From NCBI GenBank assembly GCA_015062345.1, contig SUUV01000001.1:21588-85587 (forward strand): a DNA stretch of 64,000 nt, read 5' to 3'. Origin of the DNA: Alphaproteobacteria bacterium (GTDB lineage: Bacteria > Pseudomonadota > Alphaproteobacteria > RF32 > CAG-239). Made by a program: the position numbers and the translations under genes. Positions within the stretch are counted from its first letter, which is position 1. Each line of letters begins with the position of its first letter. The notes under the pieces were generated by a model. The model ran no database searches and was not told the DNA's origin. It saw only the letters and a program-made list of their open reading frames with translations. Below, in pieces: positions 7,397 through 61,721 of the stretch.

Positions 7397-8185
7397 ATGA
7401 AATATACAAATCAAAATGGTCGTTCAATTCTTGTCAAGTGTGATTTAGAAGCGCAGGCTTTTTTGAGTGCCGTGTATAAAAGCAATACACAAACGAAAAA
7501 AAGACAAGCTGATAAATTGCAATGCGGAAGAAGTATGGTAGAGATGCTTGGCGTGCTTGCTATTATCGGTGTTTTATCGGTAGGAGGTATTGCCGGCTAT
7601 TCAAAAGCCATGAACAAATTTAAAATCAACAAAACCACAGACCAGGTTTCCGTTCTTGTTGCAAATTTGCGTACGATGTTTGCAGCTCAAGGAAACTATA
7701 GTGGATTAACCGTTAAAACCGCAATAGATTTTGGTGTTGTCCCTGATGATATGATTACAACAAGCACAACCACAGGAGGGGAAGGCAATGAAACAACCAC
7801 CTCAACAACACTTAAAAATGCATTTGGCGGAGATGTTGAAATTGCAGTATCTCCGGTTAAAAATGGTGATACAGACAGCGCATTTTATGTTGCATATGAT
7901 GGTTTGTCACAAGAAGCATGTGTAACACTTGCAACCGGTGACTGGGGTTCCGGTCAAGCCTCCGGTTTAATAGCCATGATTGCAGCTCCTTCTTTAGCAA
8001 CTGCCAAAGCTGCTGCCGCAAACGCATATGCTAACGGTAATGGTGTGGCAGGCTCAGCTACTACGGCGGCAGTAGCTCAACCGGGTGGAAGTACCCTTAA
8101 AACCCCAATGCCTGTTGCAAATGCTGTAGCAAGTTGTACTGCTGCACAAAATGCCACTCCTGCAGTGCTTTGGAAATATTACTAA
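7397..8185 (+). CDS. type IV pilin-like protein (prepilin-type N-terminal cleavage/methylation motif)
   Basis: G|RSMVEMLGVLAIIGVLSVGGIAGY has Glu at +5 after the Gly and a hydrophobic N-terminal helix. A strong AGGAAG RBS precedes the ATG. The C-terminal region is rich in Ala, Gly and Thr. Confidence 0.6.
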   Translation: MKYTNQNGRSILVKCDLEAQAFLSAVYKSNTQTKKRQADKLQCGRSMVEMLGVLAIIGVLSVGGIAGYSKAMNKFKINKTTDQVSVLVANLRTMFAAQGNYSGLTVKTAIDFGVVPDDMITTSTTTGGEGNETTTSTTLKNAFGGDVEIAVSPVKNGDTDSAFYVAYDGLSQEACVTLATGDWGSGQASGLIAMIAAPSLATAKAAAANAYANGNGVAGSATTAAVAQPGGSTLKTPMPVANAVASCTAAQNATPAVLWKYY

Positions 8186-21944: not shown

Positions 21945-22295
21945 CGGAAAATATTTGTTTTTTATTCTCAAACTTTGCAACATACCTCCTAACTGTCACT
22001 CCGGCACTTGATGCTGAAGTCCGCCTCCTAACTGTCACTCCGGCACTTGATGCCGGAGTCCAGGTGGTAATATAGCTTTAGTTATTCCCTTAGATACCGG
22101 TGTCTATTCCAAGCTAAAGCTTGGGCACCGGTATGAAAGTAAAGGAGGCAACACCTCTACCTCATTTTTGATTTAAATTCACAATTAGACTCTTTTTACT
22201 TGCAAAAAAAAAAAACGGTTTATGATGCGTATTGAGGGGTAATTTTTACACCTTTCAAGTACATTTAAACTTAATTTTTGTAAAGGATTAAAATT
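21945..22295 (+). promoter_or_regulatory. conserved upstream module, copy A, ahead of an SCPU pilin paralog
   Basis: About 350 bp shared with 36756-37045 (reverse complement) and 47648-47956, and in its proximal part with 38781-38920. It contains the hairpin ctccggca-cttga-tgccggag (tandemly duplicated as 32-bp units in this copy), a gataccggtgtc core, a palindrome ccaagctaaagcttgg, and then TTACTTGCA-A12-CGGTT-TATGAT before the ATG. Confidence 0.75.
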
Positions 22296-22757
22296 ATGAG
22301 AAAATATTTTCTAATATCCGCTGTTGCCCTCTTGGCTGCAACATCTGCAAATGCAACCACCGATTACGCTGAAGTAACAGCTCGTGCTACCATTGAAGTG
22401 GCAACTACTATGGACTGTACAGATGTAGACTTTGGTACAATCGTTGTTAAGCAAAACAATGCCGCATCTACAGTAACTATGGATGCTGATATGGGAAAAG
22501 TATATGGAGATGGTGATATTTTATCTATAGATTCCGATGAAACATTCTTCTCTTGTAACAATGGCGATGGTATGCCTATCACCGGAATATATTTATCTTT
22601 TCCTTCATCGATAGTCCTTAGTAATGGTAATGGCGGAGAAATGACTGTTGGTTTTTCAACAAACGGAGCAGAAAGTATCGATGCTGTGCTACATATCCCT
22701 GCTAAAGTTCAGTCAGGTGATTATACAGAAACATTTACCGTAACTTACACATACTAA
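22296..22757 (+). CDS. spore-coat-protein-U (SCPU)/Csu-type fimbrial major subunit, paralog 1
   Basis: Signal peptide MRKYFLISAVALLAATSANA, a DFGTIVV motif, and a C-terminal G-Y-T-x-T-F-T-V-T-Y-T-Y beta-strand typical of SCPU/archaic chaperone-usher pilins. Confidence 0.7.
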   Translation: MRKYFLISAVALLAATSANATTDYAEVTARATIEVATTMDCTDVDFGTIVVKQNNAASTVTMDADMGKVYGDGDILSIDSDETFFSCNNGDGMPITGIYLSFPSSIVLSNGNGGEMTVGFSTNGAESIDAVLHIPAKVQSGDYTETFTVTYTY

Positions 22758-22774
22758 TTTTAAAAAAACATCAA

Positions 22775-22802
22775 CCCCCTCAATTGCCACATTGAGGGGG
22801 TT
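22775..22802. terminator. bidirectional hairpin terminator
   Basis: ccccctcaat-tgccac-attgaggggg, lying between convergent genes. Confidence 0.55.
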
Positions 22803-22806
22803 AAGT

Positions 22807-24468: not shown

Positions 24469-26532
24469 TTAAGCTACATTGGTCTCTTTGGCTTTTAAGG
24501 CCTTAATTTTTTCTGCTTTCTTTTCTTCATCACAAAGTGGGCAGAATTTGTGTTCTCCTGACAAATAGCCGTGTTTCGGGCATACTGAAAATGTCGGAGT
24601 AATCGTAATATACGGTAAGCGATAATTGGTCAAAACTCGTTTTACCAAATCACGGCAAACCTTGGCTGATGATATGCGTTGTCCCATATACAAGTGTAAC
24701 ACTGTTCCGCCTGTATATTTTGTTTGCAATTCAGACTGCAAATCAAGAGCTTCAAACGGGTCATCGGTATATCCGACCGGAAGTTGAGATGAGTTTGTAT
24801 AATAGGGATCTTCTTTTGTTCCGGCCTGAATAATATCTTTATATCTTTTCTTATCTTCACGAGCAAAACGATATGTGGCACTTTCAGCCGGTGTTGCTTC
24901 CAAGTTGTACATATGTCCTGTTTCTTCTTGGATTTTTACCATCTTTTCTCTGATATAATCTAAAAACTTAATGGCAAATGCTTGTCCCCACTCATCGGCA
25001 ATGCTGTGTTCATCATCGGTATAGTTTCTTATCATTTCATTGATACCGTTAACACCAATGGTAGAAAAGTGATTACGAAGTGTACCTAAATAGCGTTTTG
25101 TAAACGGGAATAAACCGTTTTGAATAAGTCTTTCTATAACTTTGCGCTTAATTTCAAGTGATGTTCTGGCAATGTTCATCAATTCGTCAACACGACCAAA
25201 CAATCCGGCCTCATCACCTTTATAAACATATCCCAAACGAGCACAGTTAAAGGTAACAACACCAATCGAACCGGTTTGCTCGGCCGAACCGAACAAGCCG
25301 TTTCCTTTGGCTAACAATTCACGCAAGTCAAGTTGTAAACGACAACACATCGAACGAATTTGCCCCGGTTTTAACACAGAGTTCAAAAAGTTTTGAAAAT
25401 ATGGTAAACCGTATTTTGCGGTCATTTCAAACAACAACAATGTGTTTTCGTCTTCCCAAGGAAAATCCCAAGTCATATTGTATGTCGGAATCGGGAATGT
25501 AAACGGACGACCTTTAATGTCACCTTTCATCATAACTGTTATGTAGGCCTTATTTATCATAGCCATTTCTTCTTTTAAGTCACCGTATGTGAAATCTTGC
25601 TCAACTCCACCGATAATCGGGTGTTTATCTCTTAAATCTTCCGGACATACCCAGTCAAAAGTAAAGTTTGTAAACGGTGTTTGAGAGCCCCAACGAGAAG
25701 GAACATTCAAATTATAAATCAGCTCTTGCATAGATTGTTCAACTTGCTCATATGTAAGTCCGTCTTTACGAATGTATGGCGCTAAATATGTATCAACAGA
25801 CGAAAAAGCTTGAGCTCCTGCCCATTCATTTTGCAATGTGCCCATAAAGTTTACCATCTGACCGACCGCAGCCGACAAATGTTTAGCCGGACCGGCCTCA
25901 GTTTTTCCGGGAACACCGTTAAAACCCTCGTGCAACAAGTTTTTTAAAGACCAACCGGCACAATATGCAGCGAGCATATCCAAATCGTGAATGTGAATAT
26001 CGCCGTTGCGGTGAGCCTCACCCACTTCCGAGGGATATACATGGCTGAGCCAATAATTGGCGGTTACTTTACCGGAAACATTTAAGATTAATCCACCGTT
26101 GGAATAACCCTGATTCGCATTGGCATTTACACGCCAGTCAAGTCTTTCCAAATATTCATTGATGGAGCTTTCAACATCAACCATAATCTTTTTATCAGAA
26201 CGCATACGAGTGCGTTGTTCACGGTATAAAATGTAAGATTTCGCAGTCTGAAAATAGTTGTCTGAAATTAACACCTGTTCAACAATGTCCTGAATTTGCT
26301 CAATGCTCGGCAACGATTCGCTAAATTTGTGTTCCATAACTTTTAAGACTTTAGCGGTTAACAACCAAGCTTCCTGTTCCCCAAACTCGCCTGTTGATGT
26401 TCCGGCTTTTAAGATAGCCTGATAAATTTTATTAGAATCAAAAGGAGCTAAAGTTCCGTCTCTTTTGGTAACTTGGTCAATGCTGATATTATCATTTTCT
26501 ACCTTGGGCATTTCATATTTAATTTCTGACAT
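24469..26532 (-). CDS. nrdD: anaerobic ribonucleoside-triphosphate reductase (class III), apparently lacking its own glycyl-radical loop
   Basis: 687 aa with an N-terminal ATP cone (ISIDQVTKRDGTLAPFDSNKIYQAIL) and an NrdD core. The C-terminal Zn site is CPKH...CPLC, and no RVxGY follows it. Confidence 0.9.
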   Translation of the reverse strand: MSEIKYEMPKVENDNISIDQVTKRDGTLAPFDSNKIYQAILKAGTSTGEFGEQEAWLLTAKVLKVMEHKFSESLPSIEQIQDIVEQVLISDNYFQTAKSYILYREQRTRMRSDKKIMVDVESSINEYLERLDWRVNANANQGYSNGGLILNVSGKVTANYWLSHVYPSEVGEAHRNGDIHIHDLDMLAAYCAGWSLKNLLHEGFNGVPGKTEAGPAKHLSAAVGQMVNFMGTLQNEWAGAQAFSSVDTYLAPYIRKDGLTYEQVEQSMQELIYNLNVPSRWGSQTPFTNFTFDWVCPEDLRDKHPIIGGVEQDFTYGDLKEEMAMINKAYITVMMKGDIKGRPFTFPIPTYNMTWDFPWEDENTLLLFEMTAKYGLPYFQNFLNSVLKPGQIRSMCCRLQLDLRELLAKGNGLFGSAEQTGSIGVVTFNCARLGYVYKGDEAGLFGRVDELMNIARTSLEIKRKVIERLIQNGLFPFTKRYLGTLRNHFSTIGVNGINEMIRNYTDDEHSIADEWGQAFAIKFLDYIREKMVKIQEETGHMYNLEATPAESATYRFAREDKKRYKDIIQAGTKEDPYYTNSSQLPVGYTDDPFEALDLQSELQTKYTGGTVLHLYMGQRISSAKVCRDLVKRVLTNYRLPYITITPTFSVCPKHGYLSGEHKFCPLCDEEKKAEKIKALKAKETNVA

Positions 26533-36248: not shown

Positions 36249-36755
36249 TTATTCTACAAATACTAACTGCATACTACCTACATATGTACCGGCAAGATAA
36301 TCAGCTATAGCCTCCGTCCTTATAGTTGGGGTTGAAACTAATACAACCCCTTCACTGTCAAATTCATCTGATTGCAACTCAAAATTAGGTTCTACTACAA
36401 AATGAGGGTAACTGGTTCCATCTGCATCATTTGTATGAATAAGACTTATGTAAACATCATCTATAACCAGATTTAAATCCCCCTGATAATCTGTTGTACA
36501 ATAAAAAGTATAATCAGATTTACTTGATGATACAACCATATTAGGATTAGGCATTCCGTTTGTTATAAGATCATCACCATTCTCACCTAGCATACTATTA
36601 ACGACTATAGTTCCAAAATCCATCTTTTCACAATCAAATTTAACAGCATATTCAATTTTTACTTCAGCCTCTAAAGATGTATAAGCTGTAGTAGCATTTG
36701 CTGATGTTGCAGCCATTAAAGCTACAGCAGATAAAAGAAAATATTTTCTCATCAA
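36249..36755 (-). CDS. SCPU/Csu-type fimbrial major subunit, paralog 2
   Basis: MMRKYFLLSAVALMAATSANA signal peptide, a DFGTIVV motif, and a C-terminal GTYVGSMQLVFVE. Confidence 0.65.
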   Translation of the reverse strand: MMRKYFLLSAVALMAATSANATTAYTSLEAEVKIEYAVKFDCEKMDFGTIVVNSMLGENGDDLITNGMPNPNMVVSSSKSDYTFYCTTDYQGDLNLVIDDVYISLIHTNDADGTSYPHFVVEPNFELQSDEFDSEGVVLVSTPTIRTEAIADYLAGTYVGSMQLVFVE

Positions 36756-37045
36756 TTTAATCCTTAAAAATAGTTAAACTTAATTTGAAAAGCTAAAAAT
36801 TAGCCTTCCAAGACGCATCATAAACCGTTTTTTTTTTTTGCAAGTAAAAAGAGTCGTTTAAAAGATTTAAATCAAAAATGAGGTGACGGTGTTGTCTCCT
36901 TTACCGTCATATCGGTGCCCGAACTTTAGTTCGGAATAGACACCGGTATCCAGGGAATAATTTAGCTATATTACCACCTGGACTCCGGCATCAAGTGCCG
37001 GAGTGACAGTTAGGAGGTGGTTGCAAAGTTTTGAGAAAATATTTA
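36756..37045 (-). promoter_or_regulatory. conserved upstream module, copy B (minus orientation); T12 tract at 36828-36839
   Basis: Its reverse complement aligns with copies A and D along its full length. The palindrome is changed to cgaactaaagttcg, a compensatory double change relative to caagctaaagcttg. Confidence 0.75.
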
Positions 37046-37230: not shown

Positions 37231-38688
37231 TCAATTAGATTTATCTTTTACTGTAACATATTTTTGATTCGGAGCATGTGAAGAAGATTGAGTTCTGATA
37301 AGCAATCCTTTATCTATGAGTGGTTTTATAATTTTATTCATAAAATGAACTCTACTTGTATATTTAGAAATAGTCATAATTTCAACCAAAGATTTAGGCT
37401 CAATACAAAAATCTAATATTTTCTCTATAAGATATGTTACTTGATCACTTACTTGATCACTTACTTGATCACTTACTTGATTACTTACTCTATGTATAAT
37501 ATCATCAAAACAATTTATTTGCCAATCTAGTTTAAATACTGTTCCATCTGTCAACATCGGAGCATATCCTGCATATATTTTTGCATACTTAGCAATATTC
37601 CTAATGCCGGACCCAAGTTCTTCTGCCCAACCTATTTCCTTAAAAAAGCGCGCAATAACAGGATTTTTCGGATATGGTGTACTATTATCCGGATTAATAT
37701 TACCATAAATATATGGTTTATTTCCGTTTTCCGCATATATTTTATTCTTTTCAATAATTAATCTGGACGGATAATGATCTGTAAACTCTCTATGCATCAG
37801 AAAATTAATTGCAATTTCTCTAAATAAAATACTCCTCAAATCAACTCGAGCATCTCCTTCTAAATAAAACGGTGAAGGCAAATGCTTAGCAATAAACATC
37901 ATTATACGCTCATAGCTTTCTATAAGATTAGTTCTGATATCATCTCTATCATCATATCTTTCAATGTTTCTGATTCTTAAAATCAAATCTGTCTTATAGT
38001 GAGGTAAAACAGATTGAATAACTTCATCTTTTCCAAACAATAAAACACAAGCTAGTGTATATCCTTCTTTACCCGATAAATAATCTGTCTTATACAAACC
38101 GGCACTTTTTAACAGCTGTTCATTTGTAAGATTCTTCCAAGGATGGTCAGCCTTCCTGATTACAGCCATTGTACGACATTTGTTTATAACATCTTCTCTT
38201 AAATGATTTATGCTGATTCCGGAATAAATATCATTTTCTGAATATGTCTTATCTTTATTAGCATACAATTTTGCAATTTGCTTTGGTTGTTGAGTAATGT
38301 CAATATCTCCATCAGCAGCACTGCGTATATAGATTTTATTACAACAAAAATGAACTTCTGAACTTGCAGGAACAAGAATATATAAAATCTGTTTACCCTC
38401 GATTTTTATTTCTTCAACCGATAAATATAAAGGAGGATTAAATTTTGAGATATTATTTATGGTATTTGTAAAATCTTTCTTCATTTGAGCAATTTTATCT
38501 TTATCAATACCCAAAACTTCACCATTATCACTAACACCCAGTAAAATATGCCCTCCCAAAGTATTTGAAAAAGCACATACGGTTTCATAAATGCTTTTAG
38601 GTAACAATCCGTGTTGTGCGCTTTTAAATTCGGTTCTTATCCCTTCACCATGAGTTATAAGTGTTTTTATATTTTCAATCATCTGCAA
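37231..38688 (-). CDS. AlbA_2 (divergent AAA / Schlafen-like) domain protein with a C-terminal wHTH; putative DNA-binding regulator
   Basis: The N-terminus EGIRTEFKSAQHGLLPKSIYETVCAFSNTLGGHILLGVSDNGEVLGI is the classic AlbA_2 signature. The C-terminal winged helix is often annotated as RecG-C-terminal-like. It contains a (VSDQ)n repeat. Confidence 0.7.
   Translation of the reverse strand: MQMIENIKTLITHGEGIRTEFKSAQHGLLPKSIYETVCAFSNTLGGHILLGVSDNGEVLGIDKDKIAQMKKDFTNTINNISKFNPPLYLSVEEIKIEGKQILYILVPASSEVHFCCNKIYIRSAADGDIDITQQPKQIAKLYANKDKTYSENDIYSGISINHLREDVINKCRTMAVIRKADHPWKNLTNEQLLKSAGLYKTDYLSGKEGYTLACVLLFGKDEVIQSVLPHYKTDLILRIRNIERYDDRDDIRTNLIESYERIMMFIAKHLPSPFYLEGDARVDLRSILFREIAINFLMHREFTDHYPSRLIIEKNKIYAENGNKPYIYGNINPDNSTPYPKNPVIARFFKEIGWAEELGSGIRNIAKYAKIYAGYAPMLTDGTVFKLDWQINCFDDIIHRVSNQVSDQVSDQVSDQVTYLIEKILDFCIEPKSLVEIMTISKYTSRVHFMNKIIKPLIDKGLLIRTQSSSHAPNQKYVTVKDKSN
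37434..37489. repeat. in-frame 12-bp tandem repeat (ttacttgatcac, three perfect copies plus a degenerate fourth) encoding (VSDQ)n
   Basis: Direct reading gives gttacttgatcacttacttgatcacttacttgatcacttacttgattacttactc. Confidence 0.8.
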
Positions 38689-38780
38689 TCCTTTTTAACC
38701 TATACAAAAAAGGATAATCAATTATTTTAAAAAAGACAGAGAATTTTCCAAATTATCCTATCATAAATATTTTACTTTCT

Positions 38781-38920
38781 TTACCTCATTTTTGATTTAA
38801 ATTCTTTAAACGACTCTTTTTACTTGCAAAAAAAAAAAACGGTTTATGATGCGACATGAGAGGTAAATTTTTGCACCTTTCAAATGTACTTAAACTTAAT
38901 TTTTGTAAAGGAATTAAAAA
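38781..38920 (+). promoter_or_regulatory. conserved upstream module, copy C (proximal 140 bp only); A12 tract at 38828-38839
   Basis: cctcatttttgatttaaat...ctttttacttgc-A12-cggtttatgatgcg...; the distal hairpin region is absent. Confidence 0.7.
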
Positions 38921-39367
38921 ATGAGAAAATATTTTCTTTTGAGCGCAGTTGCACTCTTGGCAACAACCACCGCCAATGCAACCACAGACTATGCCGAAGT
39001 AACAGCTCGTGCAGAAATTCAAGTGGCTAATGAATCTGCTTGTGATGATATAGATTTTGGCACTATTGTTGTTAAGGACGGAAACGAAGCTTTTACTATC
39101 GGATTTTCAGGAATAACCGGTGACGGAGAATCTGATGTTATATCCGTTGGCGAATATACTAAGTATATTCATTGCACAAATATGGGAGATTCTGCAAATA
39201 TCGATGAAGAGACAATAATACTAAAAAATAAAACCGGTGATGAAATGTCATTACGTCTTATGGGTGGCATTCCTAGTGATGAAGAATTTGCTGTTTATCT
39301 TGATGTTCCGAACAATGTTCATTCGGGTGAGTATACCGCTTCATTTACAATTGCTATAACCTATTAA
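38921..39367 (+). CDS. SCPU/Csu-type fimbrial major subunit, paralog 3
   Basis: MRKYFLLSAVALLATTTANA signal peptide, a DFGTIVV motif, and a C-terminal GEYTASFTIAITY. Confidence 0.7.
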   Translation: MRKYFLLSAVALLATTTANATTDYAEVTARAEIQVANESACDDIDFGTIVVKDGNEAFTIGFSGITGDGESDVISVGEYTKYIHCTNMGDSANIDEETIILKNKTGDEMSLRLMGGIPSDEEFAVYLDVPNNVHSGEYTASFTIAITY

Positions 39368-39380
39368 TTAACCTAAATAA

Positions 39381-39418
39381 AACTCCGGAAAGTTTACCAC
39401 TCTCCGGAGTTTTATTTA
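39381..39418. terminator. bidirectional terminator
   Basis: actccgga-(14 nt)-tccggagt followed by a T-run, between convergent genes. Confidence 0.6.
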
Positions 39419-41427: not shown

Positions 41428-42054
41428 ATGAAAATCTTAATTGCTGATGACCACGCATTGTTCAGGGACGGACTTGCCATGCGTTTGGAGGAAATTAACC
41501 CCGACATAATTTTACATCAGGCAGCAACATTTTCCCAAGCCGTTAAAATTTTGGATAAAGAAAATGATATCAATATGATTATTGTCGATTTAGATATGCC
41601 GGATATGAAATGGGAAGACGGTATCAACGAGTTAAAAAACAAAGCTCCCGATGTTTCAATGGTTGTTATCTCCGCATCGGAAGACATCAGAAACATTCGC
41701 AAAATTTTAGCTACCGGCATTAAGGGTTACATTCCTAAACGCTCCGACCCCAAAATTATGCACAATGCCTTAAAGCTAATCTTAGAAGGAGGCACTTACA
41801 TTCCGCCGGCCCTGATTGAAAACACTTCCGAGAGCTCTGCAAGTTCGCATCGTTCAAACGGCAAAACCTTAACCAACCGTCAATCACAAGTTTTAGATTT
41901 AATTGCACAAGGAAAATCCAATAAACAAATTGCTTATGAAATGGGAGTGTCGGAGGCAACCGTAAAACTTCATATCAATGCTTTGTTGCGCTCCTTAAAA
42001 GTCAACAATCGCACGCAGGCAGTTGTTACTGCTCAAAAAATGGGCTTAATTTAA
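41428..42054 (+). CDS. two-component response regulator, NarL/FixJ (LuxR-type HTH) family
   Basis: Receiver domain (ILIADDHALFRDGL...DLDMPDM...) and a C-terminal LuxR HTH (LTNRQSQVLDLIAQGKSNKQIAYEMGVSEATVKLH). No adjacent histidine kinase is present. Confidence 0.85.
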   Translation: MKILIADDHALFRDGLAMRLEEINPDIILHQAATFSQAVKILDKENDINMIIVDLDMPDMKWEDGINELKNKAPDVSMVVISASEDIRNIRKILATGIKGYIPKRSDPKIMHNALKLILEGGTYIPPALIENTSESSASSHRSNGKTLTNRQSQVLDLIAQGKSNKQIAYEMGVSEATVKLHINALLRSLKVNNRTQAVVTAQKMGLI

Positions 42055-42055
42055 C

Positions 42056-43450
42056 TTACCTTGCCGCCACCAACGAAATTGAAGATATTGTATCGCCCAT
42101 ACCGACCAAGGTTATGGGCTTTTCAATTAATATGGTCGGTACCACAATTAAATCCCACTTAATGTAACGGCCGATTCCTTTTGTATCCAACTCATCTTGC
42201 CCGATTGATGTTGCCAAATTTGAGGCTTCAATCAGTCCGACATCGGAAACCGTATATCCGTGCGCAAACAACAAATTATCAATTGTTCCCGTACCGGCTT
42301 TAGCAGCCGCAACCGTTGAAGCGGTCATCATACCTTTTAAGTTTTGCTCAGGGCTGATTTTAAATCCGGTATCTTGCAATGTAATATAAAGCCCGAACAT
42401 ATGAAGTTGTATTCTCTTAACTTGCAATTTTTCCTTAATTTTTACAATTGCCGCAAACAAATTTTCGGCCGTTGTTTTGGCTTTGCAAAGACGAGCAAGT
42501 TTTTCTTCGCCTATAGCTTCTAAAACATCAATTGTTTCTCTTTCATTTATCCCGATTGAATCCATTAACGGCACAAGCAAATTGACAATGGCTTTGCGAA
42601 CTTCAAAATCTTGTGTTGATGCAATTTCCAAATGGAAAATTGCTTCTTTGTTGTTTTCTTTCCACTTTTTTAGTTCGGGTACAATGTTTTCAATTAATTT
42701 AACCCCGTCATTGTTTGAAGTTAAAGCATGAAAGCCCGATAAAATCACATACTCGGTTTTGTTTTTTTGCACATAGTCCATAAACGGTTTATCAATTACC
42801 AATTTCAAATTTAACGGGTCATATGTGGCTATAAATCTGTTTGATTTCGGAGATGTAAATTTTTTACCCTCAAGCAGTAAAACATCACCTCGGTCAAACT
42901 CAATAATCCAATGAATAAGCGCCACATCGTTTTCACGATTTATACTATATGCGGGTGCCAAATTGCCGTTTTCATCAAACGAAAGCAGATTATCTTTTTT
43001 AACAAACTGTTCGGCCTGAAGTTTAGGCAAAGAGTTTGTATGTGCCACAACTTTTTTGATGCCGACCGTTGCCAAAGCATTGGCCACAATTCCGCCCTGC
43101 CCGCCAATTTGAAGCCTGTCATAACCGATGTTGTCATTGAGCCAATCATAAACATCTTTATCTTCGGTTATCCATTCTTCGGCAATTCCGTTGGTAAAGC
43201 ATTTAAAAATGCCTTTTACCACATCTTGCGGAGTATAAATTTTTGTTTGCTTAATGTCTTGCAAATCATGTAAGCTCAAATTTAATTCTTCAATAAGTTT
43301 TTTCAAATTTTGAGCCGACATTTTTATCACCGCATCAATATTTGCATTAAAGGCGGTAACTGCCGAATTTATGTTTTTTAACTCTTTTAATTGCTCAGGT
43401 ACGATTTTATATTTTTCAAGCCAAATTTTTTTCAAATCAGCAGTATCCAT
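42056..43450 (-). CDS. ADP-dependent sugar kinase (ADP-glucokinase/phosphofructokinase family, archaeal type)
   Basis: Family motifs are present: AFNANIDAV near the N-terminus, GGQGGIVANALA, and a C-terminal VGMGDTISS. The protein is 464 aa. Confidence 0.7.
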   Translation of the reverse strand: MDTADLKKIWLEKYKIVPEQLKELKNINSAVTAFNANIDAVIKMSAQNLKKLIEELNLSLHDLQDIKQTKIYTPQDVVKGIFKCFTNGIAEEWITEDKDVYDWLNDNIGYDRLQIGGQGGIVANALATVGIKKVVAHTNSLPKLQAEQFVKKDNLLSFDENGNLAPAYSINRENDVALIHWIIEFDRGDVLLLEGKKFTSPKSNRFIATYDPLNLKLVIDKPFMDYVQKNKTEYVILSGFHALTSNNDGVKLIENIVPELKKWKENNKEAIFHLEIASTQDFEVRKAIVNLLVPLMDSIGINERETIDVLEAIGEEKLARLCKAKTTAENLFAAIVKIKEKLQVKRIQLHMFGLYITLQDTGFKISPEQNLKGMMTASTVAAAKAGTGTIDNLLFAHGYTVSDVGLIEASNLATSIGQDELDTKGIGRYIKWDLIVVPTILIEKPITLVGMGDTISSISLVAAR

Positions 43451-47647: not shown

Positions 47648-47956
47648 AAAATATTTGTTTTTTCTCCTCATACTTTGCAACATACCTCCTCACTGTCACT
47701 CCGGCACTTGATGCCGGAGTCCAGGTTAAATTATATAGCTAAATTATTCCCTGGATACCGGTGTCTATTCCAAGCTAAAGCTTGTGCACCGATATGACCG
47801 TGATGAGAGACAACACTTCTACCTCATTTTTGATTTAAATCTTTTAAACGACTCTTTTTACTTGCAAAAAAAAAAACGGTTTATGATGCGTATTGAAAGG
47901 TAAATTTTTGTACCTTTCAAATTAAGTTAAACTATTTTTGTAAAGGAATTTTAAAA
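47648..47956 (+). promoter_or_regulatory. conserved upstream module, copy D; A11 tract at 47866-47876
   Basis: Aligns along its full length with copy A and with the reverse complement of copy B. It starts right after the nth terminator. Confidence 0.75.
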
Positions 47957-48442: not shown

Positions 48443-51400
48443 TTATTTTTCTTCTTCGGCTTTGATAACTTCAGGTTCTTTTTGTTCTGATGTCATGATA
48501 GCTTCGGTAACAGGCTTATCTTCAGATTTATTTTCCGAATTATCTTCGGAGTTTTCTTCTTCATCATCACCTGCAATCAAACCAACTGCCGTAGCCGTTG
48601 CCGCAACACCTGTCGCCGTTACGGCATCTGTTGCAGAACTTGCAACATCACCAACCGCCTCAGCAACACCTGTAAGAGCATCTAAAGGAGCAGATACAAT
48701 GTCATCTGCCACATTTTCAGCGCTACTTTCGGCATTTGTTGCTTCAACAGCCTCAGACATTGTTGCGGCTACCTTATCCAAATCCGTACCTTCTGAAGTT
48801 TCATCGGTTGCGGCATCTGTTGTACCCTCACCGATACCTTCTTCATTGTAGAAAATTTGGTCAACATAGATATCAACATCATCAACCGTAATATCATCAA
48901 GTTGAGTTAATATCTTGCCGTCTCGTCTGACAACCACATCATATGTACCAAACGGAACATCGGTTACAATGAAATATCCTTCCAAGTCGGCATATACAAC
49001 CGAAACATCGTTGCCTTGTTCATCAACGGCGGCAATTTCATATCCGTATAGGCGCTTTCCTTCCGGATTTGCCAAATATCCTTCAATGTTACCGAAGTGT
49101 TTGAACAAAATATCAACAGTTTTAACCGTTCCCGGTCTGAGAACTAATTTTTTGGTATCATCAACCGGCTTTAATGCCACATCTTCAACCGATTCGATAT
49201 CAACGGTTAAAATGGTTTTTTCATATGACAACAAGTCAGTCAGCAATGCCGTACCTCTTTCATCGGTATAAACATCATCAACCAAGTTATTGGCTTTCAA
49301 ACCGACACCCTCAAGCGGTGTACCGTGTTCGTCGTGAGCTCTTACAAATATAGATCCCGAACTGCTGAACTGCGAGTTGTTTGAAGTCAAAATTCTGACT
49401 CCGCCGGGCTCTTTTGCAAAACTTACATTGTAGGTTAAATATGCAGACGCATTTTTATCACTGTCATATTGTAAGGTTAACGACAAACCGCCGAACGGGA
49501 AAATTCTGGAGCCCGATACCGAATAATAGTCACGGTCGGTTTCCAAATCTCGCCTGTATGAAGCTGTCCAATATGTATATCTGTCATCACGCCATGTTAA
49601 CTTACTTGAATATTCCAATGCATCAGGATTGGGGTTTGTTCTGTAGGTTAACATATTTTCCAAAGAAAACTTATCCCAATAGTTATAAACCGTAGGCTTA
49701 ACCTCGTTTTCGTGATTGATGGCATCATAGGTGTCTTCAATTGAAACATACCAACCTCTGGAAATATTTTTCGAAATTCTTCCCACGATATCTTCATACG
49801 GAATTTCACCGTTTTCTTTTTCACCGGTTCTATAACTTACATAAAACGGCAACGCAAAAGGCAATGTTCCGTTAAAACGAAACTCGGTTTTGTTTTTCAA
49901 ATATTCATTACCGTAATATGATACCGGCGAATGCAACTCGTTATATTCATCATAAGATGCATACAATGTACCGACATAAATATCACCTTGCCATTCGGCA
50001 TGATGTCCGATATTGCCGGTGTCAAAATTGCGTTCTAAGTTATATTGAATGGAGCTTCCCTTAATGGCATACTGAAAACCTGTCATCGAAAAATACTCAG
50101 TTTCGGTTTTGGTAACCTCATCAGGAGTTTGTGTTACACCGGCCATTAAAGTTAAGTTATCGGTTAAACCATAGTAGAAGTTAGAATCTAAAACCAGAAT
50201 ATCTTTGCCTTCATACTTATTGGTTTCATAGGTTTCAACCAAATATCTCCAAGGTTGATAAGCGGCAATATTATAACCGATTTCACCTTTCTTAACCGGA
50301 CTGGTACCGGCATAATATCTTTTTTCTTCGGTTCTTACCTCACCGTACGGACCATAGAAAACAAGCTTAAATGTATTTAAACCATATGAAACCGGAATGT
50401 TGGCAAAGTTATATTGTCCGGCCTCACCGTTTTGTTTATATCCGATAAGCTGATTGTTCCAATATAACTCAACTTCCCAACCCTCAACCAAAGGACCGGT
50501 AATGTTAATGGTTTTGTTAGCACTCATCACCAAGTTTTTAAAGCTCGATGCCGTAATACCTCGACCATAACTGGCACTTGAAAAATATGAGTCGCTGATA
50601 CCGTTGATATCACCGAGTTCAAACTTTTTCAAATTGATTGCGTTCGGCGGATCGTTCAAAAGTGTTCTTCCGGCCGAAATTCTAAATGTCGGGTCATGGT
50701 CATTAGATGAGTTACCCGAAATATAGCTTATAACATCAAGTCCGGCGGCAATGGTCGAAAAGTTAAGAGCATATGAACTGCTGTCGGTATAATCTCCGGT
50801 GCTTTCCGAATATTGCAAACCTGCACCGACCTGAACGTCAAGCACCGGTGTACCGATTAGGCGCTCATCCATTTCATAGCCCTTAAAACTGTTGTCTTGC
50901 ATAGTGTAAAGGCCTTTGCTTTTACGGCGCTTATCCGCATTTAACTTAACCAATGTCGGAAACTCGGTATCACGGTCAATGTTAAGTGTCATATCGTAAA
51001 AGTCAATTTTTAATTCTATCGCCAAAAAGCGCTCTAAAAAGGATGAACTGAAGAACATGGTATCATCTAAATATTTATAATCAGATTCGACCATATCAAT
51101 TTTTGTATCGCCTTTTTGTGCGGTAAAATTGTTCAAATCAATATCAAAAACAAATTGCTTTGCGTTGATATAGTTAATTTTTACGATATTATCCTCGTTT
51201 TTATAATCAAGACCTATAAGATTAGCAAGCTGTGTCAACGGAATGTAAACCGTTTGACCCTCATTATAAGCATAAACATAATCATCAGCCAAGTAGCCTT
51301 GAACAACGGTTTCCAAAATAAGGTCCGTATCCTCGGGACGATAAGCTTCATCTTCACTTTCTTTTACAGACGACTGTTCTTCATCGGTTGTAGCATCTTG

Positions 51401-51667
51401 AGCAGTTTCAGTTTCATCATTTTCCTGCTCGGCAGATTCCTCACCGGATTCTTCACCTGCACCCTCAACAGATTCTTTTTCCGATTCTTCAGATGCTTCG
51501 TCTTCGGAAACGGCGGTTTCTTCGGTTGAAGATTGCTCCTGTTCCTGATTTTGTTTATCCTCAAGTTTTTCAACTTGTGCAGTTTCAGATGCGTCTTGTT
51601 TTGTATCGTCCGCTTGCACTGCTTTTGATAAAACTATAAGCAGTGCAAGAAGTCCGAATTTAAACAT
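48443..51667 (-). CDS. fimbrial usher-like outer-membrane protein with long acidic N- and C-terminal extensions
   Basis: About 1070 aa, immediately downstream of a PapD-like chaperone and overlapping its stop. It has a signal peptide (MFKFGLLALLIVLSKAVQA), a beta-rich central region of about 800 aa rich in Tyr and Gly, and tails rich in Glu, Asp and Ser. The family assignment rests on context and size. Confidence 0.5.
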   Translation of the reverse strand: MFKFGLLALLIVLSKAVQADDTKQDASETAQVEKLEDKQNQEQEQSSTEETAVSEDEASEESEKESVEGAGEESGEESAEQENDETETAQDATTDEEQSSVKESEDEAYRPEDTDLILETVVQGYLADDYVYAYNEGQTVYIPLTQLANLIGLDYKNEDNIVKINYINAKQFVFDIDLNNFTAQKGDTKIDMVESDYKYLDDTMFFSSSFLERFLAIELKIDFYDMTLNIDRDTEFPTLVKLNADKRRKSKGLYTMQDNSFKGYEMDERLIGTPVLDVQVGAGLQYSESTGDYTDSSSYALNFSTIAAGLDVISYISGNSSNDHDPTFRISAGRTLLNDPPNAINLKKFELGDINGISDSYFSSASYGRGITASSFKNLVMSANKTINITGPLVEGWEVELYWNNQLIGYKQNGEAGQYNFANIPVSYGLNTFKLVFYGPYGEVRTEEKRYYAGTSPVKKGEIGYNIAAYQPWRYLVETYETNKYEGKDILVLDSNFYYGLTDNLTLMAGVTQTPDEVTKTETEYFSMTGFQYAIKGSSIQYNLERNFDTGNIGHHAEWQGDIYVGTLYASYDEYNELHSPVSYYGNEYLKNKTEFRFNGTLPFALPFYVSYRTGEKENGEIPYEDIVGRISKNISRGWYVSIEDTYDAINHENEVKPTVYNYWDKFSLENMLTYRTNPNPDALEYSSKLTWRDDRYTYWTASYRRDLETDRDYYSVSGSRIFPFGGLSLTLQYDSDKNASAYLTYNVSFAKEPGGVRILTSNNSQFSSSGSIFVRAHDEHGTPLEGVGLKANNLVDDVYTDERGTALLTDLLSYEKTILTVDIESVEDVALKPVDDTKKLVLRPGTVKTVDILFKHFGNIEGYLANPEGKRLYGYEIAAVDEQGNDVSVVYADLEGYFIVTDVPFGTYDVVVRRDGKILTQLDDITVDDVDIYVDQIFYNEEGIGEGTTDAATDETSEGTDLDKVAATMSEAVEATNAESSAENVADDIVSAPLDALTGVAEAVGDVASSATDAVTATGVAATATAVGLIAGDDEEENSEDNSENKSEDKPVTEAIMTSEQKEPEVIKAEEEK

Positions 51668-51668
51668 A

Positions 51669-52439
51669 CTACTTACTGATGTTTGCCTGCAAAATTTCTT
51701 TTCCTGTGAGTCCATCTTCTAGTACCAAAGTTGTGGGTTTTGTTTTAACATCTTTTTTCAAAGAAACCGAAACTGTACGCTTTGTGTTCGGCAAATAAAT
51801 TCTGACATTGTCTGTTCTGCCGATTTCTTCACCTTTTTCATCTTTTACAATAAGTTTAACACGAGAAGAAATGTTACCTAAACGATTTAATACAACTTCA
51901 ACTTTACCGTCTTTAACTTTCGCACTTTCAACTTCAGTTTTTGCGTACAAATCTTTACCTTTTAAGATAGTAACCGGAATACCGATTGCTTGCAAAACCT
52001 TAACCGATACGGACAAAGTATCTTCTTCACCTTCTTCGGTTGCTTTTTTAACTCTGGGCATTTCAACTTCACGAACAACCAAGTGAGTAACGCTTTCACC
52101 GTCTGCCATATTACCCAAACCTTTTCTTGCAACTCTGATTGCTTGTGTTTTACCCGGTTTTAAGGTAAATTGTTTTGGTGAAAATACCAAAAAGTCTTTA
52201 GCGGAGTTTTCCATAGTTTCAACTTCTTCAAACTTACCTTGTTCGTTTTGTTTGTATTGAACCAAATTTACTCTGTATGTTTGAAGTTCGTTTGAACTGT
52301 TCATAATGTTAAGTGTTTGCGATCTTTTACGAGAATTTTCCTCAAAGTCAACAGCCATCGGGAAAATTGTAAAACCTGCATAAGCTTTAGAAACCGCTAA
52401 GCAAGCAAGTAATGTATAAAGACATATTTTTTTAAGCAT
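51669..52439 (-). CDS. periplasmic pilus chaperone (PapD-like fold)
   Basis: Signal peptide. The first domain shows the pattern FTIFPMAVDF...RSQTLNIMNSS...LVFSPKQFTLKPGKTQAIRVAR, which resembles the PapD/FimC strand pattern. Confidence 0.6.
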   Translation of the reverse strand: MLKKICLYTLLACLAVSKAYAGFTIFPMAVDFEENSRKRSQTLNIMNSSNELQTYRVNLVQYKQNEQGKFEEVETMENSAKDFLVFSPKQFTLKPGKTQAIRVARKGLGNMADGESVTHLVVREVEMPRVKKATEEGEEDTLSVSVKVLQAIGIPVTILKGKDLYAKTEVESAKVKDGKVEVVLNRLGNISSRVKLIVKDEKGEEIGRTDNVRIYLPNTKRTVSVSLKKDVKTKPTTLVLEDGLTGKEILQANISK

Positions 52440-52460
52440 TTTGTACTCCTTAAAATTATA

Positions 52461-53408
52461 TTATTGATAGATTAAATTAACTGTAAAACTTCCGGTATAA
52501 CTTCCGGCAGGTTGGTCTTTGCCGACATGTAAAGTTGCGCCGACCGCAATATTTTGAGTTGATAACCCGTCACCGGCAGGAAGCGTAAACACGGTAGACG
52601 GTGCAAAAGTAAATGTATCAACCGTCATTGAATTTGCATTATCGGAAGTCTTAATTTCCAAACTTTCAGGCGAAACACTTGCCTGAATGGTGCGTCCGGC
52701 AACACCGCTTACGGTTGCTTGTCCGGCAGTTGCATCTTTTTTTGAAAGCATGGTAACATTGTTTAATGTCACATTACCATCAGGTGCCAAAACAATTGTA
52801 CCGGCGGCAGTCGGTGAAACAACCGTACCGAAACTCATATTCGAAATGTTGGAAATTGTAATCGGGTTATCGGTCTCAACCGCAACTTGTAAAGTGGCAT
52901 CGGGTGTATCATCAATTACGGCAATACCTTCTTCATCAGCCAAACTGTACGGAATGTTGACACTTCCTTTATAGGTATCTGTTTCACAAAAACCCGAAAT
53001 CTTAACGCTTGCTCCGATATTTATTTTTCCGTTAGGTTGGTCGGGTGTTAAAAGAACGGCTGTCGGAGTTGCCGTAAAATTTGAAAATGTAATGGTGCAA
53101 CCATCACCTTCAATGGTAGCCGTAGGCATTTCATTGTTAATAAGAACTACTCTGTTTGCAGTTTCTCCCTCGGCAAAATCATATGTAAAGCTTAAAACAC
53201 CGGCATTTTTAATGTGCGTACCTTGAACAAAAGCTCCTACCAACTCAACATCACCGTTGGTAGCAAGCACCGCTGAAGATTCTTTTTGGGATAAAATTAT
53301 CTTACCTAAATCCATAAAATCTGTGTTTTCAACAATTAAATCGGCAAAACAAGGCGTTGATGCCAAACATAAAGACATAAATGTAACAAAATTTCTAACT
53401 TTAACCAT
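52461..53408 (-). CDS. two-domain SCPU-type fimbrial subunit (tip or adhesin-like)
   Basis: Signal peptide, an internal MSFGTVV motif (compare DFGTIVV in the paralogs), and a C-terminal GSYTGSFTVNLIYQ. It is the first gene of the chaperone-usher operon. Confidence 0.55.
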   Translation of the reverse strand: MVKVRNFVTFMSLCLASTPCFADLIVENTDFMDLGKIILSQKESSAVLATNGDVELVGAFVQGTHIKNAGVLSFTYDFAEGETANRVVLINNEMPTATIEGDGCTITFSNFTATPTAVLLTPDQPNGKINIGASVKISGFCETDTYKGSVNIPYSLADEEGIAVIDDTPDATLQVAVETDNPITISNISNMSFGTVVSPTAAGTIVLAPDGNVTLNNVTMLSKKDATAGQATVSGVAGRTIQASVSPESLEIKTSDNANSMTVDTFTFAPSTVFTLPAGDGLSTQNIAVGATLHVGKDQPAGSYTGSFTVNLIYQ

Positions 53409-59978: not shown

Positions 59979-61721
59979 ATGAAAAAAATATTTCTGATTA
60001 TGGTTTTTATAATAATATCAACAATGTCCGTTATTTATTTTCGGCGTCCTCTTACCAGTGAGGAATTTTTAAATAAATATGATTTATATTCCGATTATCT
60101 TGCCGCAATTAAGAAAATAAAAGAAGATGATTATTTGAGTAAATATTTGGATAAACATTTACCCGTTTTTGAAGAATCAATTGAAATAATCATTAACAGT
60201 CCTTTTAATAAGGAATATAAAATTGCAAATTTAAAACATATGTTTAATAACAGTCCTTATTATTGGAGAAAAGACAATATAGAGTTTGCAATAAAGTATG
60301 ACCCTAAGGGAACAATAAAATACCTTGAGAAAAAAACCGATAAATCATTAAGTGATGCATTGCAATTAATGGTTTTATATCAAATATATCAGCCAAAAAA
60401 AATAAAATCAAAGCTATATGAAGAACTTACCGATTTTTCTCATCAGCAAATATTGGAATATTTTGCTCAACAAAAATTCCAATCATCATGGCGTTCTGAA
60501 GAATATAATGAACTTATAAAAAACGACTACAAAAAATGTTATGCTGAGTTAAAGTGTTTGTTGGATATTTTACCATACTGGATGAATTGGGAAGCAGATT
60601 TTACCACATATATACCTTGTGAGATTGCACAAAAATATAATAAAGTCGCATATTTTGATGTAGCCGGCGGCGGACATGGTTCGCAGTCGTTTATAACTTC
60701 CGATTGTCCTTTATACTCAAAATATAAATATCCCAAAGAAGTGAATAAATATTATAATATGCTGTTTCAAGAAAGTATGCCGTATTCTGATGGTAGTATA
60801 AGGTTTTTGTATTATGCGAGAACGAATTATAAATCTTTAACAGATACATATTCTCCAAAATTTGATATGCCAAAACAAACCGATTGGAAAGATTTTCCTT
60901 ATACTAATTGGTCTGTCAAATCTTATTACACTTTCAAAAAATATAATGAAGTTTTAAATTATGGCATCGGATATAAAAAAGCGTTAGAAGAACTTACCGA
61001 CCACTATGTTAAAAATTTTAATGTAAGTCAAGAACAAGCATATAATACAGCTTTATACACATTACAAATTCCCTCAATGGATAAATACGATTTGATTTCA
61101 AAAGACAATCTGAACTATATGCTGTTAACCGGACAAGATATTGAAGAAATATTAAACAAACATAACAATTTGAAAAATTATCAAAATCTTTTGCATTTAA
61201 GCATTGCACACCCGAAAAATCTTCAACATCTTATAGAACTGGGACAGGCCGAAAAATCTTTCGATATAGATTATAATTCCACTTGGTACGGCAAAACACC
61301 TCTAATGATTGCGGCTCAATACGGCTATTTAGACAGTGTAAAAATATTGTTGGAAAACAATGCAAATATAAATAAACAAACACAAAACGGTGATTGTTGG
61401 AGTGAATATGGCTTAGAGTGTATCTATAACGGTAAAAGAACAGCATTGATGTATGCCCTTCAAGAAGGACAATTTGAAGTAGCTAAATATTTAATAAAAA
61501 ACAATGCCGATATAAGTTTAAGAGACGATAAAAATAATTCAGCATTAGATTATATGCTGGGTATTGCCCCTCTCAGAGGCACTAAAAATCTTGATATAGC
61601 AAGTGGAATTGCCGGACATAAAAATGATGATACACCTAAAAGTCCGTTTACCAAGGAACAACAAGAATATTTATTGCCTTTATTAACACCCGCAGAAAAT
61701 GAAAACATTATTTCAAATTGA
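59979..61721 (+). CDS. membrane-anchored ankyrin-repeat protein
   Basis: N-terminal TM helix and C-terminal ANK repeats (GKTPLMIAAQYGYLDSVKILLENNANIN...; GKRTALMYALQEGQFEVAKYLIKNNADIS). Confidence 0.7.
   Translation: MKKIFLIMVFIIISTMSVIYFRRPLTSEEFLNKYDLYSDYLAAIKKIKEDDYLSKYLDKHLPVFEESIEIIINSPFNKEYKIANLKHMFNNSPYYWRKDNIEFAIKYDPKGTIKYLEKKTDKSLSDALQLMVLYQIYQPKKIKSKLYEELTDFSHQQILEYFAQQKFQSSWRSEEYNELIKNDYKKCYAELKCLLDILPYWMNWEADFTTYIPCEIAQKYNKVAYFDVAGGGHGSQSFITSDCPLYSKYKYPKEVNKYYNMLFQESMPYSDGSIRFLYYARTNYKSLTDTYSPKFDMPKQTDWKDFPYTNWSVKSYYTFKKYNEVLNYGIGYKKALEELTDHYVKNFNVSQEQAYNTALYTLQIPSMDKYDLISKDNLNYMLLTGQDIEEILNKHNNLKNYQNLLHLSIAHPKNLQHLIELGQAEKSFDIDYNSTWYGKTPLMIAAQYGYLDSVKILLENNANINKQTQNGDCWSEYGLECIYNGKRTALMYALQEGQFEVAKYLIKNNADISLRDDKNNSALDYMLGIAPLRGTKNLDIASGIAGHKNDDTPKSPFTKEQQEYLLPLLTPAENENIISN

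Follow-up and report, generated by a model that had tools for sequence, protein, structure and literature searches.

Four pilin-like genes scattered over the window, that is, the whole 64-kb stretch of DNA analysed here, each lie behind a copy of the same promoter-like module, in which a run of 11 or 12 adenines sits between a conserved upstream box and a candidate -10 hexamer. Our preferred reading, to which we give a probability of roughly 0.55, is that these tracts are a case of promoter-repeat phase variation of the pilin genes. The scattered genes would most likely change their expression at random via the tract, as known phase-variable fimbriae do. The window is part of the JGI contig Ga0318466_10003894, which corresponds to an Alphaproteobacteria MAG with locus tags beginning with E7016_.

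The tracts lie at the exact positions, and have the exact lengths, given by a first-pass annotation of the window:

22204-22215, + strand, A12 tract in the promoter of the 22k paralogue
38828-38839, + strand, A12 tract in the promoter of the 38k paralogue
47866-47876, + strand, A11 tract in the promoter of the 47k paralogue
36828-36839, - strand, A12 tract (T12 on the + strand) in the promoter of the 36k paralogue

Runs of A or T of 7, 8, 9, 10, 11 and 12 nt occur 81, 15, 1, 0, 1 and 3 times, respectively, in the 64-kb window, and those of 10 nt or more are the four pilin-promoter tracts alone. This gap in the run-length spectrum makes the four tracts outliers for this genome. Counted as A11-mers against dinucleotide shuffles of the window, such words show no excess (7 observed, 5.8 expected; 35 of 100 shuffles reached 7 or more). 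In 164 kb of RGIG4267, a related MAG described below, runs of at least 10 nt are likewise essentially restricted to pilin promoter modules. The tracts are thus long and unusual for the genome in both the window and the related MAG, as are the repeats of phase-variable contingency loci. It counts against phase variation that poly-G/C tracts are usually more mutable than poly-A/T tracts.

The context of the four tracts is invariant and reads ACCTCATTTTTGATTTAAAT-N10-GACTCTTTTTACTTGC-An-CGGTTTATGATGCG: the module consists of ACCTCATTTTTGATTTAAAT, 10 variable nucleotides, GACTCTTTTTACTTGC, the tract, CGGTT and TATGAT(G). The shorter context originally proposed, GACTCTTTTTACTTGC-An-CGGTT-TATGAT, is found unchanged in all four window copies. 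Four matches to the flanking motifs, and no more, are present in the window, a number reached by none of 100 shuffles, and the modules sit about 70 nt 5' of their secreted-paralogue genes:

22159-22227, + strand, promoter module of the 22k paralogue, with candidate -35 TTGCAA at 22200-22205 and candidate -10 TATGAT at 22221-22226
38783-38851, + strand, promoter module of the 38k paralogue, with TTGCAA at 38824-38829 and TATGAT at 38845-38850
47821-47888, + strand, promoter module of the 47k paralogue, with TTGCAA at 47862-47867 and TATGAT at 47882-47887
36816-36884, - strand, promoter module of the 36k paralogue, with TTGCAA at 36843-36838 and TATGAT at 36822-36817

An alignment of the four window copies with 21 copies from the related MAG shows that invariance extends 16 nt to the 5' side of the tract and 12 nt to its 3' side. 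The module is constant around the tract in the four window copies and in at least 33 MAG copies; the adjoining segments vary, and their variable blocks come as a few discrete variants that are reused in differing combinations.

The window holds exactly four MRKYF-type paralogues, and the tract is present at all four, so that its assignment to every pilin-paralogue promoter stands. Their products are secreted proteins of 147-167 aa with the N-terminus MRKYFLLSAVALLAA:

22296-22757, + strand, 22k pilin paralogue of 153 aa, with a signal peptide and the conserved N-terminal strand TTDYAEVTARATIEVA
38921-39367, + strand, 38k pilin paralogue of 148 aa
47957-48400, + strand, 47k pilin paralogue of 147 aa
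36249-36752, - strand, 36k pilin paralogue of 167 aa, with its ATG at 36752
22771-22804, no strand assigned, terminator-like hairpin after the 22k gene

The hairpin 3' of the 22k gene indicates that this gene forms a monocistronic unit. The genes adjoining the four paralogues are housekeeping genes, namely pheST, proS, nrdDG, eno, tsaD and nth. Across the family, signal peptides and putative donor strands are conserved and the bodies are only 30-38% identical. The 38k and 36k proteins share 31-47% identity with the 22k protein, and in the comparison of the 38k and 22k proteins, an overall identity of 47% divides into 86% over the N-terminal 36 aa and 38% over the body. The gathering threshold of Pfam DUF4402 (PF14352), 25.2 bits, is just reached by the 22k protein (25.2) and slightly exceeded by the 47k protein (26.2), and neither the 38k nor the 36k protein matched this family. 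A literature search on DUF4402 returned nothing. A structure model of a paralogue suggests a chaperone-usher pilin-like fold, with CsuA/B and CupE among its best structural matches. The products are candidate subunits of a surface pilus; their assembly parts are conserved and their bodies have diversified.

The machinery that such subunits would require is encoded in the same window:

48443-53408, - strand, chaperone-usher operon, recognized by Pfam and fold
52461-53408, - strand, first gene of the operon, 315 aa with two DUF4402 stretches (Pfam E 1.5e-30, 106.9 bits), a candidate tip or two-domain subunit
51669-52439, - strand, PapD-like periplasmic chaperone (PapD_N 31.4 bits against a cutoff of 23; weak NCBIfam match to the TcfA chaperone)
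48443-51715, - strand, divergent outer-membrane usher of 1090 aa, from its fold match, with acidic disordered tails

The 1090-aa protein itself was not identified by Pfam (including Usher), NCBIfam or PDB sequence searches. Its homologues (about 49% identity) reach Pfam Usher PF00577 at E 2e-6, its AF2 model has a pLDDT of 76 with a core above 85, and Foldseek aligns this model with FimD and PapC at E 8e-29 to 1e-27, the best 18 matches all being ushers. Its identity as an usher thus comes from the family profile and the fold search rather than from a direct sequence search. The acidic, disordered tails measure about 110 aa at the N-terminus and about 130 aa at the C-terminus. The usher has 131 relatives, which come from further Alphaproteobacteria MAGs and a single Elusimicrobiota MAG, and some of them are fused to OmpA or SPOR domains. 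Both the chaperone and the usher of a chaperone-usher pilus system are therefore present, and the proposal that a single operon serves the dispersed subunits agrees with the window, where one operon encodes both; it holds for these 64 kb only. The region upstream of the operon itself carries no poly-A module or tract.

The four paralogues of the window represent a small part of a large family. At least 25 pilin paralogues bear locus tags beginning with E7016_. A database of 5.8 billion proteins contains just 146 members of the whole family, every one of them belonging to a small number of Alphaproteobacteria MAGs. When species-representative genomes were scanned with the module pattern, MAG RGIG4267, obtained from roe deer colon, gave at least 23 occurrences; in syntenic stretches, its identity to the window is about 93%. 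Tract lengths in these 23 copies are A12 in 16, A11 in two, A10 in two, A9 in two and A8 in one, and RGIG4267 holds at least 33 modules in total, ranging from A8 to A12 with a mode of A12. The observation that tract length differs between copies, made on A11 and A12 in the window, therefore extends to A8-A12 among the MAG paralogues. The region of the 38k paralogue is the only one that is syntenic among the RGIG4267 loci fetched. There, locus L011 compared with window positions 38600-39400 has an eno flank that is 93% identical, followed by a different, non-alignable paralogue, about 0.9 kb of extra DNA and an A12 module, which indicates a seemingly fast turnover of cassette content at a fixed site.

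RGIG4267 also contains a second class of module, GACTCGTATAAATTGC-A11/12-CGGTTTATGATG, in seven copies (L001 at 7963, L004 at 3386, L006 at 6449, L007 at 1601, L008 at 70, L013 at 5241 and L017 at 1690). These modules are often divergent from a class-1 (DUF4402-pilin) module about 170-200 nt away. They drive type IVb pilin-like genes of 210-228 aa, with the sequence MRKICELGRSMVEMLGVLAIIGVL..., several of which are truncated; the N-terminal 81 residues of the products are 57% identical to the type IVb (PilS/Bundlin-type) pilin encoded at 7397-8185 (+ strand) of the window. This window gene has an ordinary upstream region without a poly-A module, and its RGIG4267 relatives carry the module. Common to both classes are the box GACTC-N7-TTGC 5' of the tract, the tract itself, CGGTT and a hexamer of the form TAnnAT.

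That the tract changes faster than its surroundings is supported by the comparison of the same locus in different samples, for which contigs from other assemblies encoding exactly the same protein were available at ten loci. Tract length had been expected to differ between samples, and it does so at 3 of the 10 loci, which are polymorphic at the tract among otherwise identical contigs. Six loci have A12 in every contig, namely 36k (eight contigs, i.e., the window and seven others), P0090 (five), P0035 (four), P0014 (five), P0098 (three) and P0073 (five). At the 22k locus, four contigs (the window and three others) have A12, and a fifth, L033, has A9 with the whole upstream region different. 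The 47k locus has A11 in three contigs (the window and two others) and A12 in two, and in one of these, L039, the extra A is the sole difference in 3444 bp. At the 38k locus, C38827 has become A in one sample (TTG-A13) and is deleted in another (TTG-A12), each change being the sole difference, in 1244 or 1137 bp. At the P0045 locus, four contigs have A12, two have A13 and one, with unrelated flanks, has A10; each A13 is the sole difference, in 1558 or 904 bp, and both lie 5 nt from contig ends. In all, the tract change is the only difference over 0.9-3.4 kb in five contigs, A12 makes up about 80% of the observations, and the longest allele observed is A13.

The 17 near-identical contigs available for the four window loci show nine differences in total, four of them within the 13 nt formed by the tract and its flanking C, a 135-fold enrichment (Fisher p 1.4e-7, or 7e-4 if the changes represent two independent events) that identifies the tract as a mutational hotspot; these are consensus contigs, many of the samples probably come from one study and ENA contigs may re-assemble JGI samples, which limits their independence. 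Many short contigs end exactly at the module. The first-pass annotation had described runs of at least 11 as slippage-prone: their outlier length and their behaviour as a hotspot across samples agree with this, and slippage itself is the part that we infer. Scans of public metagenomes for tracts of A13 or more and of 4-10 nt found nothing relevant in a collection that evidently lacks this organism, and hence have no bearing on a cap in length; a single match, L050, was dismissed as a chance match.

The alternative that best survives these data is that the architecture is static, which we consider possible, if rather unlikely. A12 would then be a fixed, selected element, such as a rigid or bent A-tract spacer or a protein-binding or UP-like sequence, that sets one geometry for an activator-dependent promoter, and the other alleles would be rare, mildly deleterious or neutral mutations, or belong to decaying copies, with no switch being exploited. 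In its favour, tract lengths in two species and two module classes peak sharply at exactly 12, and 6 of 10 loci are invariant; this dominance of A12 and these invariant loci also count against phase variation, together with the 15-nt spacer at A12 discussed below. Some short-tract copies are pseudogenes, as in L013, where the copy at A10 has lost its start codon. Furthermore, the invariant 16 nt upstream and 12 nt downstream exceed the need of sigma-70 hexamers, which suggests a bound regulator. On the other hand, tracts of A8-A11 stand in front of intact genes at RGIG4267 loci, and at three loci a tract change is the lone difference between near-clonal contigs. Apart from these tracts, the genome purges runs above 9 nt, and maintaining more than 30 mutable tracts would therefore be costly unless their mutability were tolerated or useful. 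The well-studied cases with the same anatomy before variable surface genes, among them Bordetella fim and Mycoplasma vlp, are all phase-variable.

Recombination offers a second alternative, improbable as the main source of the variation, in which gene conversion homogenises and shuffles the modules, tract alleles travel in converted patches and the poly-A is a passenger. Patchwise replacement does seem to affect these loci: L029, L033 (which brings A9), L047 and L059 keep an identical coding sequence with promoter and 5'UTR segments that differ in patches from window positions 22137-22282 or 36863-36932, the variable blocks are a few discrete variants in new combinations, and L061 and L069 have the same coding sequence between entirely different flanks. 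Such swaps point to gene conversion, or to assembly chimeras across a repeat of more than 30 copies, and either may also move tract alleles; the possibility of chimeras weakens the swaps as evidence for recombination. Moreover, L039, L042, L058, L065, L036 and L037 change the tract or its flanking C and nothing else nearby, an outcome that would be rare with a diverged donor.

Phase variation through the promoter also requires the tract to lie between promoter elements, and here the hexamer and the edges of the module are informative. An A12 tract puts 15 nt between TTGCAA and TATGAT and an A11 tract 14 nt, and the alternative -35, TTACTT, would give 19 and 18 nt, respectively, in agreement with the 14-15 nt and approximately 19 nt first reported. 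With TTGCAA, spacers of 16-18 nt would need A13-A15, of which A13 alone was observed, and rarely. The earlier argument that a shift of 1-3 nt would carry the spacing across the 17-nt optimum is hence arithmetically sound; among the alleles observed, none exceeds A13 and none reaches 17 nt with TTGCAA. A generic sigma-70 scan called no promoter at the modules at their present lengths, because it demands spacers of 16-18 nt and the actual spacer is 14-15 nt. As the conserved -35 element, TTACTT has to be abandoned: TTTACT/TTACTT is replaced in the class-2 module, which retains TTGC, making TTGC(AA) the better candidate for the upstream element, and TTTACT would make A9 the optimal length. Sigma-54, ECF and FliA-type promoters were also rejected, since their motifs do not fit the module in a check by eye.

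Under a third alternative, transcription would start from an upstream or another promoter, and the run would lie in the 5' leader or be irrelevant. The silence of the generic sigma-70 scan is in its favour, but we judge it very improbable given the behaviour of the candidate -10. Of the copies, 31 have TATGAT as their hexamer, two have TAAGAT and two TAGAAT, and as all variants retain TAnnAT, it varies as expected of a -10 element. The 3' edge of the module common to both pilin families is TATGATG, and in the type IVb pilin family the start codon follows 23-30 nt later, with a Shine-Dalgarno sequence in the 30-nt leader. Shared sequence that stops at TATGATG, before another gene and leader, would place the start site just downstream and the tract upstream of the transcript. 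In addition, as read from the sequence, no -10-like hexamer is suitably placed downstream of the upstream TTGATT, and no opposite-strand hairpin precedes the T-run, which disposes of a terminator there. TATGAT and TTGC are accordingly the inferred promoter elements of the module, and the putative position of the tract between TTGC/TTGCAA and TAnnAT within the promoter is supported but not proven. Finally, sequencing or assembly noise at homopolymers is hardly credible as the source of the length differences: two A13 calls lie at contig ends and all the data are consensus contigs, but two separate samples agree on A12 at 47k and two on A13 at P0045, the 36k tract is the same in eight contigs, and the C38827 changes are not homopolymer miscounts.

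Other features surround the module. About 8 nt past TATGATG, nearly all copies have an A/U-rich stem-loop, GARAGGT...ACCTTTC with the loop AATTTTT (window 22230-22262 and equivalents). Its apparent covariation by eye did not survive RNAalifold, which returned 5 pairs at -0.8 kcal/mol with G-U changes only and no compensatory changes, and we do not regard this 5'UTR hairpin as a conserved structure. An Rfam search of the module and its upstream element found no match. This upstream element, a palindrome of about 125 nt, lies directly 5' of three of the four modules (22023-22150, 36895-37020 on the - strand, and 47685-47815), with a partial additional copy at 21997-22022. It has a closing stem GCCUCCU/AGGAGGC with two long hairpins inside (RNA fold -58.4 kcal/mol, z -5.6). 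Being rare beside the modules of the related MAG, it falls outside the core module; conceivable identities are a MITE/REP-like repeat, an insulator or a small RNA.

We thus return to promoter-repeat phase variation, for which the following mechanism can be envisaged. Each pilin paralogue would form its own transcription unit behind a portable promoter module, in which the poly-A fills the gap between the GACTC-N7-TTGC box, with its -35-like TTGCAA, and the putative -10 TATGAT/TAnnAT. The tract would gain or lose bases at a raised rate, most likely by slipped-strand mispairing in replication. A change of 1 nt would shift both the spacing and the rotational phasing of the upstream box relative to the -10, and transcription of the one subunit gene concerned would thereby go up or down, presumably in a heritable yet reversible manner. 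With dozens of variable genes and one chaperone-usher machine in the window, a population would display shifting subsets of pilus variants, much like contingency loci or bet-hedging. The role of A12 could be understood in two ways. First, A12 possibly keeps the promoter OFF or low but poised, with a single step leading to ON, the shorter tracts being decaying or locked copies. Second, the promoter may be activator-dependent, with A12 as its working geometry and any deviation turning the gene down, in analogy to the Bordetella fim promoters with their activator box and C-stretch. Tract length would modulate expression under either of these readings. A NarL/FixJ-type response regulator of the family of BvgA might act as the activator; its gene, at 41428-42054 (+ strand) of the window, is 2 kb away from the 38k paralogue.

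A broader proposal, which we advance tentatively and regard as somewhat doubtful, is that a single core, TTGC-A(n)-CGGTT-TAnnAT, stands before more than 30-40 dispersed genes of two unrelated filament systems, the DUF4402 chaperone-usher pilins and the type IVb pilins, that switch independently, forming the largest known promoter-repeat repertoire of pili, with the modules exchanged by gene conversion. The same core on two pilus families would indicate one regulatory logic for surface variation. If the tracts switch expression, the uncharacterised DUF4402 family gains a function as variable chaperone-usher pilus subunits, and an uncultured, commensal or symbiotic gut alphaproteobacterium would be investing in surface filaments that switch independently and form a very large repertoire, a strategy documented so far mainly in pathogens. 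Regarding lifestyle, an ADP-dependent phosphofructokinase/glucokinase family gene (42056-43450, - strand) and nrdD/nrdG (24469-26532, - strand) point to an anaerobic gut organism, and a 580-aa ankyrin-repeat protein (59979-61721, + strand) suggests host association. The mechanism is a textbook one, and the value of the case therefore lies in its scale, its host and the annotation of the family rather than in a new principle.

Among known systems, the Bordetella fimbriae offer a close parallel in gene organization. In the fim promoters, a C-stretch lies between the activator box and the -10, and its length differs by gene and strain and affects transcript level (PMC1891110). As with fim2, fim3, fimX and fimN of Bordetella pertussis and Bordetella bronchiseptica, the subunit genes studied here are dispersed, in front of each of them a separate homopolymer lies between a conserved box and the putative -10, and one chaperone-usher operon is present, here within the window. 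The two systems differ in the repeat, which is poly-A here and poly-C in Bordetella, and in size, with at least 25-33 genes per genome here against three or four fim genes. The activator of fim is BvgA, whereas here we can point only to a candidate NarL/FixJ-type regulator and to the conserved box GACTC-N7-TTGC. The subunits are of the DUF4402 type, and no sequence relationship to Fim2/3 was detected.

The closest system in repeat type and position is vlp of Mycoplasma hyorhinis, in which, as summarised in PMC10502178, poly-A indels in the promoter switch transcription ON or OFF (Citti and Wise, 1995). As here, according to that summary, the surface-protein genes make up a family whose members each possess a promoter and a poly-A tract of their own. 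The vlp genes are clustered lipoprotein genes of a wall-less bacterium, unlike the dispersed pilin genes of a diderm described here. Tracts of vlp are also longer, with about 17-20 A compared with 8-13 A here. In hifA/hifB of Haemophilus influenzae, whose repeat is of TA units, and in porA, opc and nadA of Neisseria, a repeat in or near the -35/-10 spacer alters spacing and surface expression. These are single or few loci with dinucleotide or G/C repeats, unlike the present family, and the hif repeat sits between divergent promoters. A general review covers such systems (PMC11868660).

As assembled structures, the predicted pili resemble the archaic and alternate chaperone-usher pili (Csu, CupE/SCPU and CS1/Tcf) in their PapD-like chaperone, FimD/PapC-fold usher and small, putatively Ig-like subunits. 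They depart from them in that the subunits match DUF4402 only at threshold, the usher misses Pfam Usher and bears long acidic tails, and many subunit genes lie outside the operon. These tracts are thus probably a new example of promoter-repeat phase variation akin to that of Bordetella fim and Mycoplasma vlp. The case stands out mainly by its scale, and also by an apparent switch core common to two pilus families and by the role that it suggests for DUF4402 proteins.
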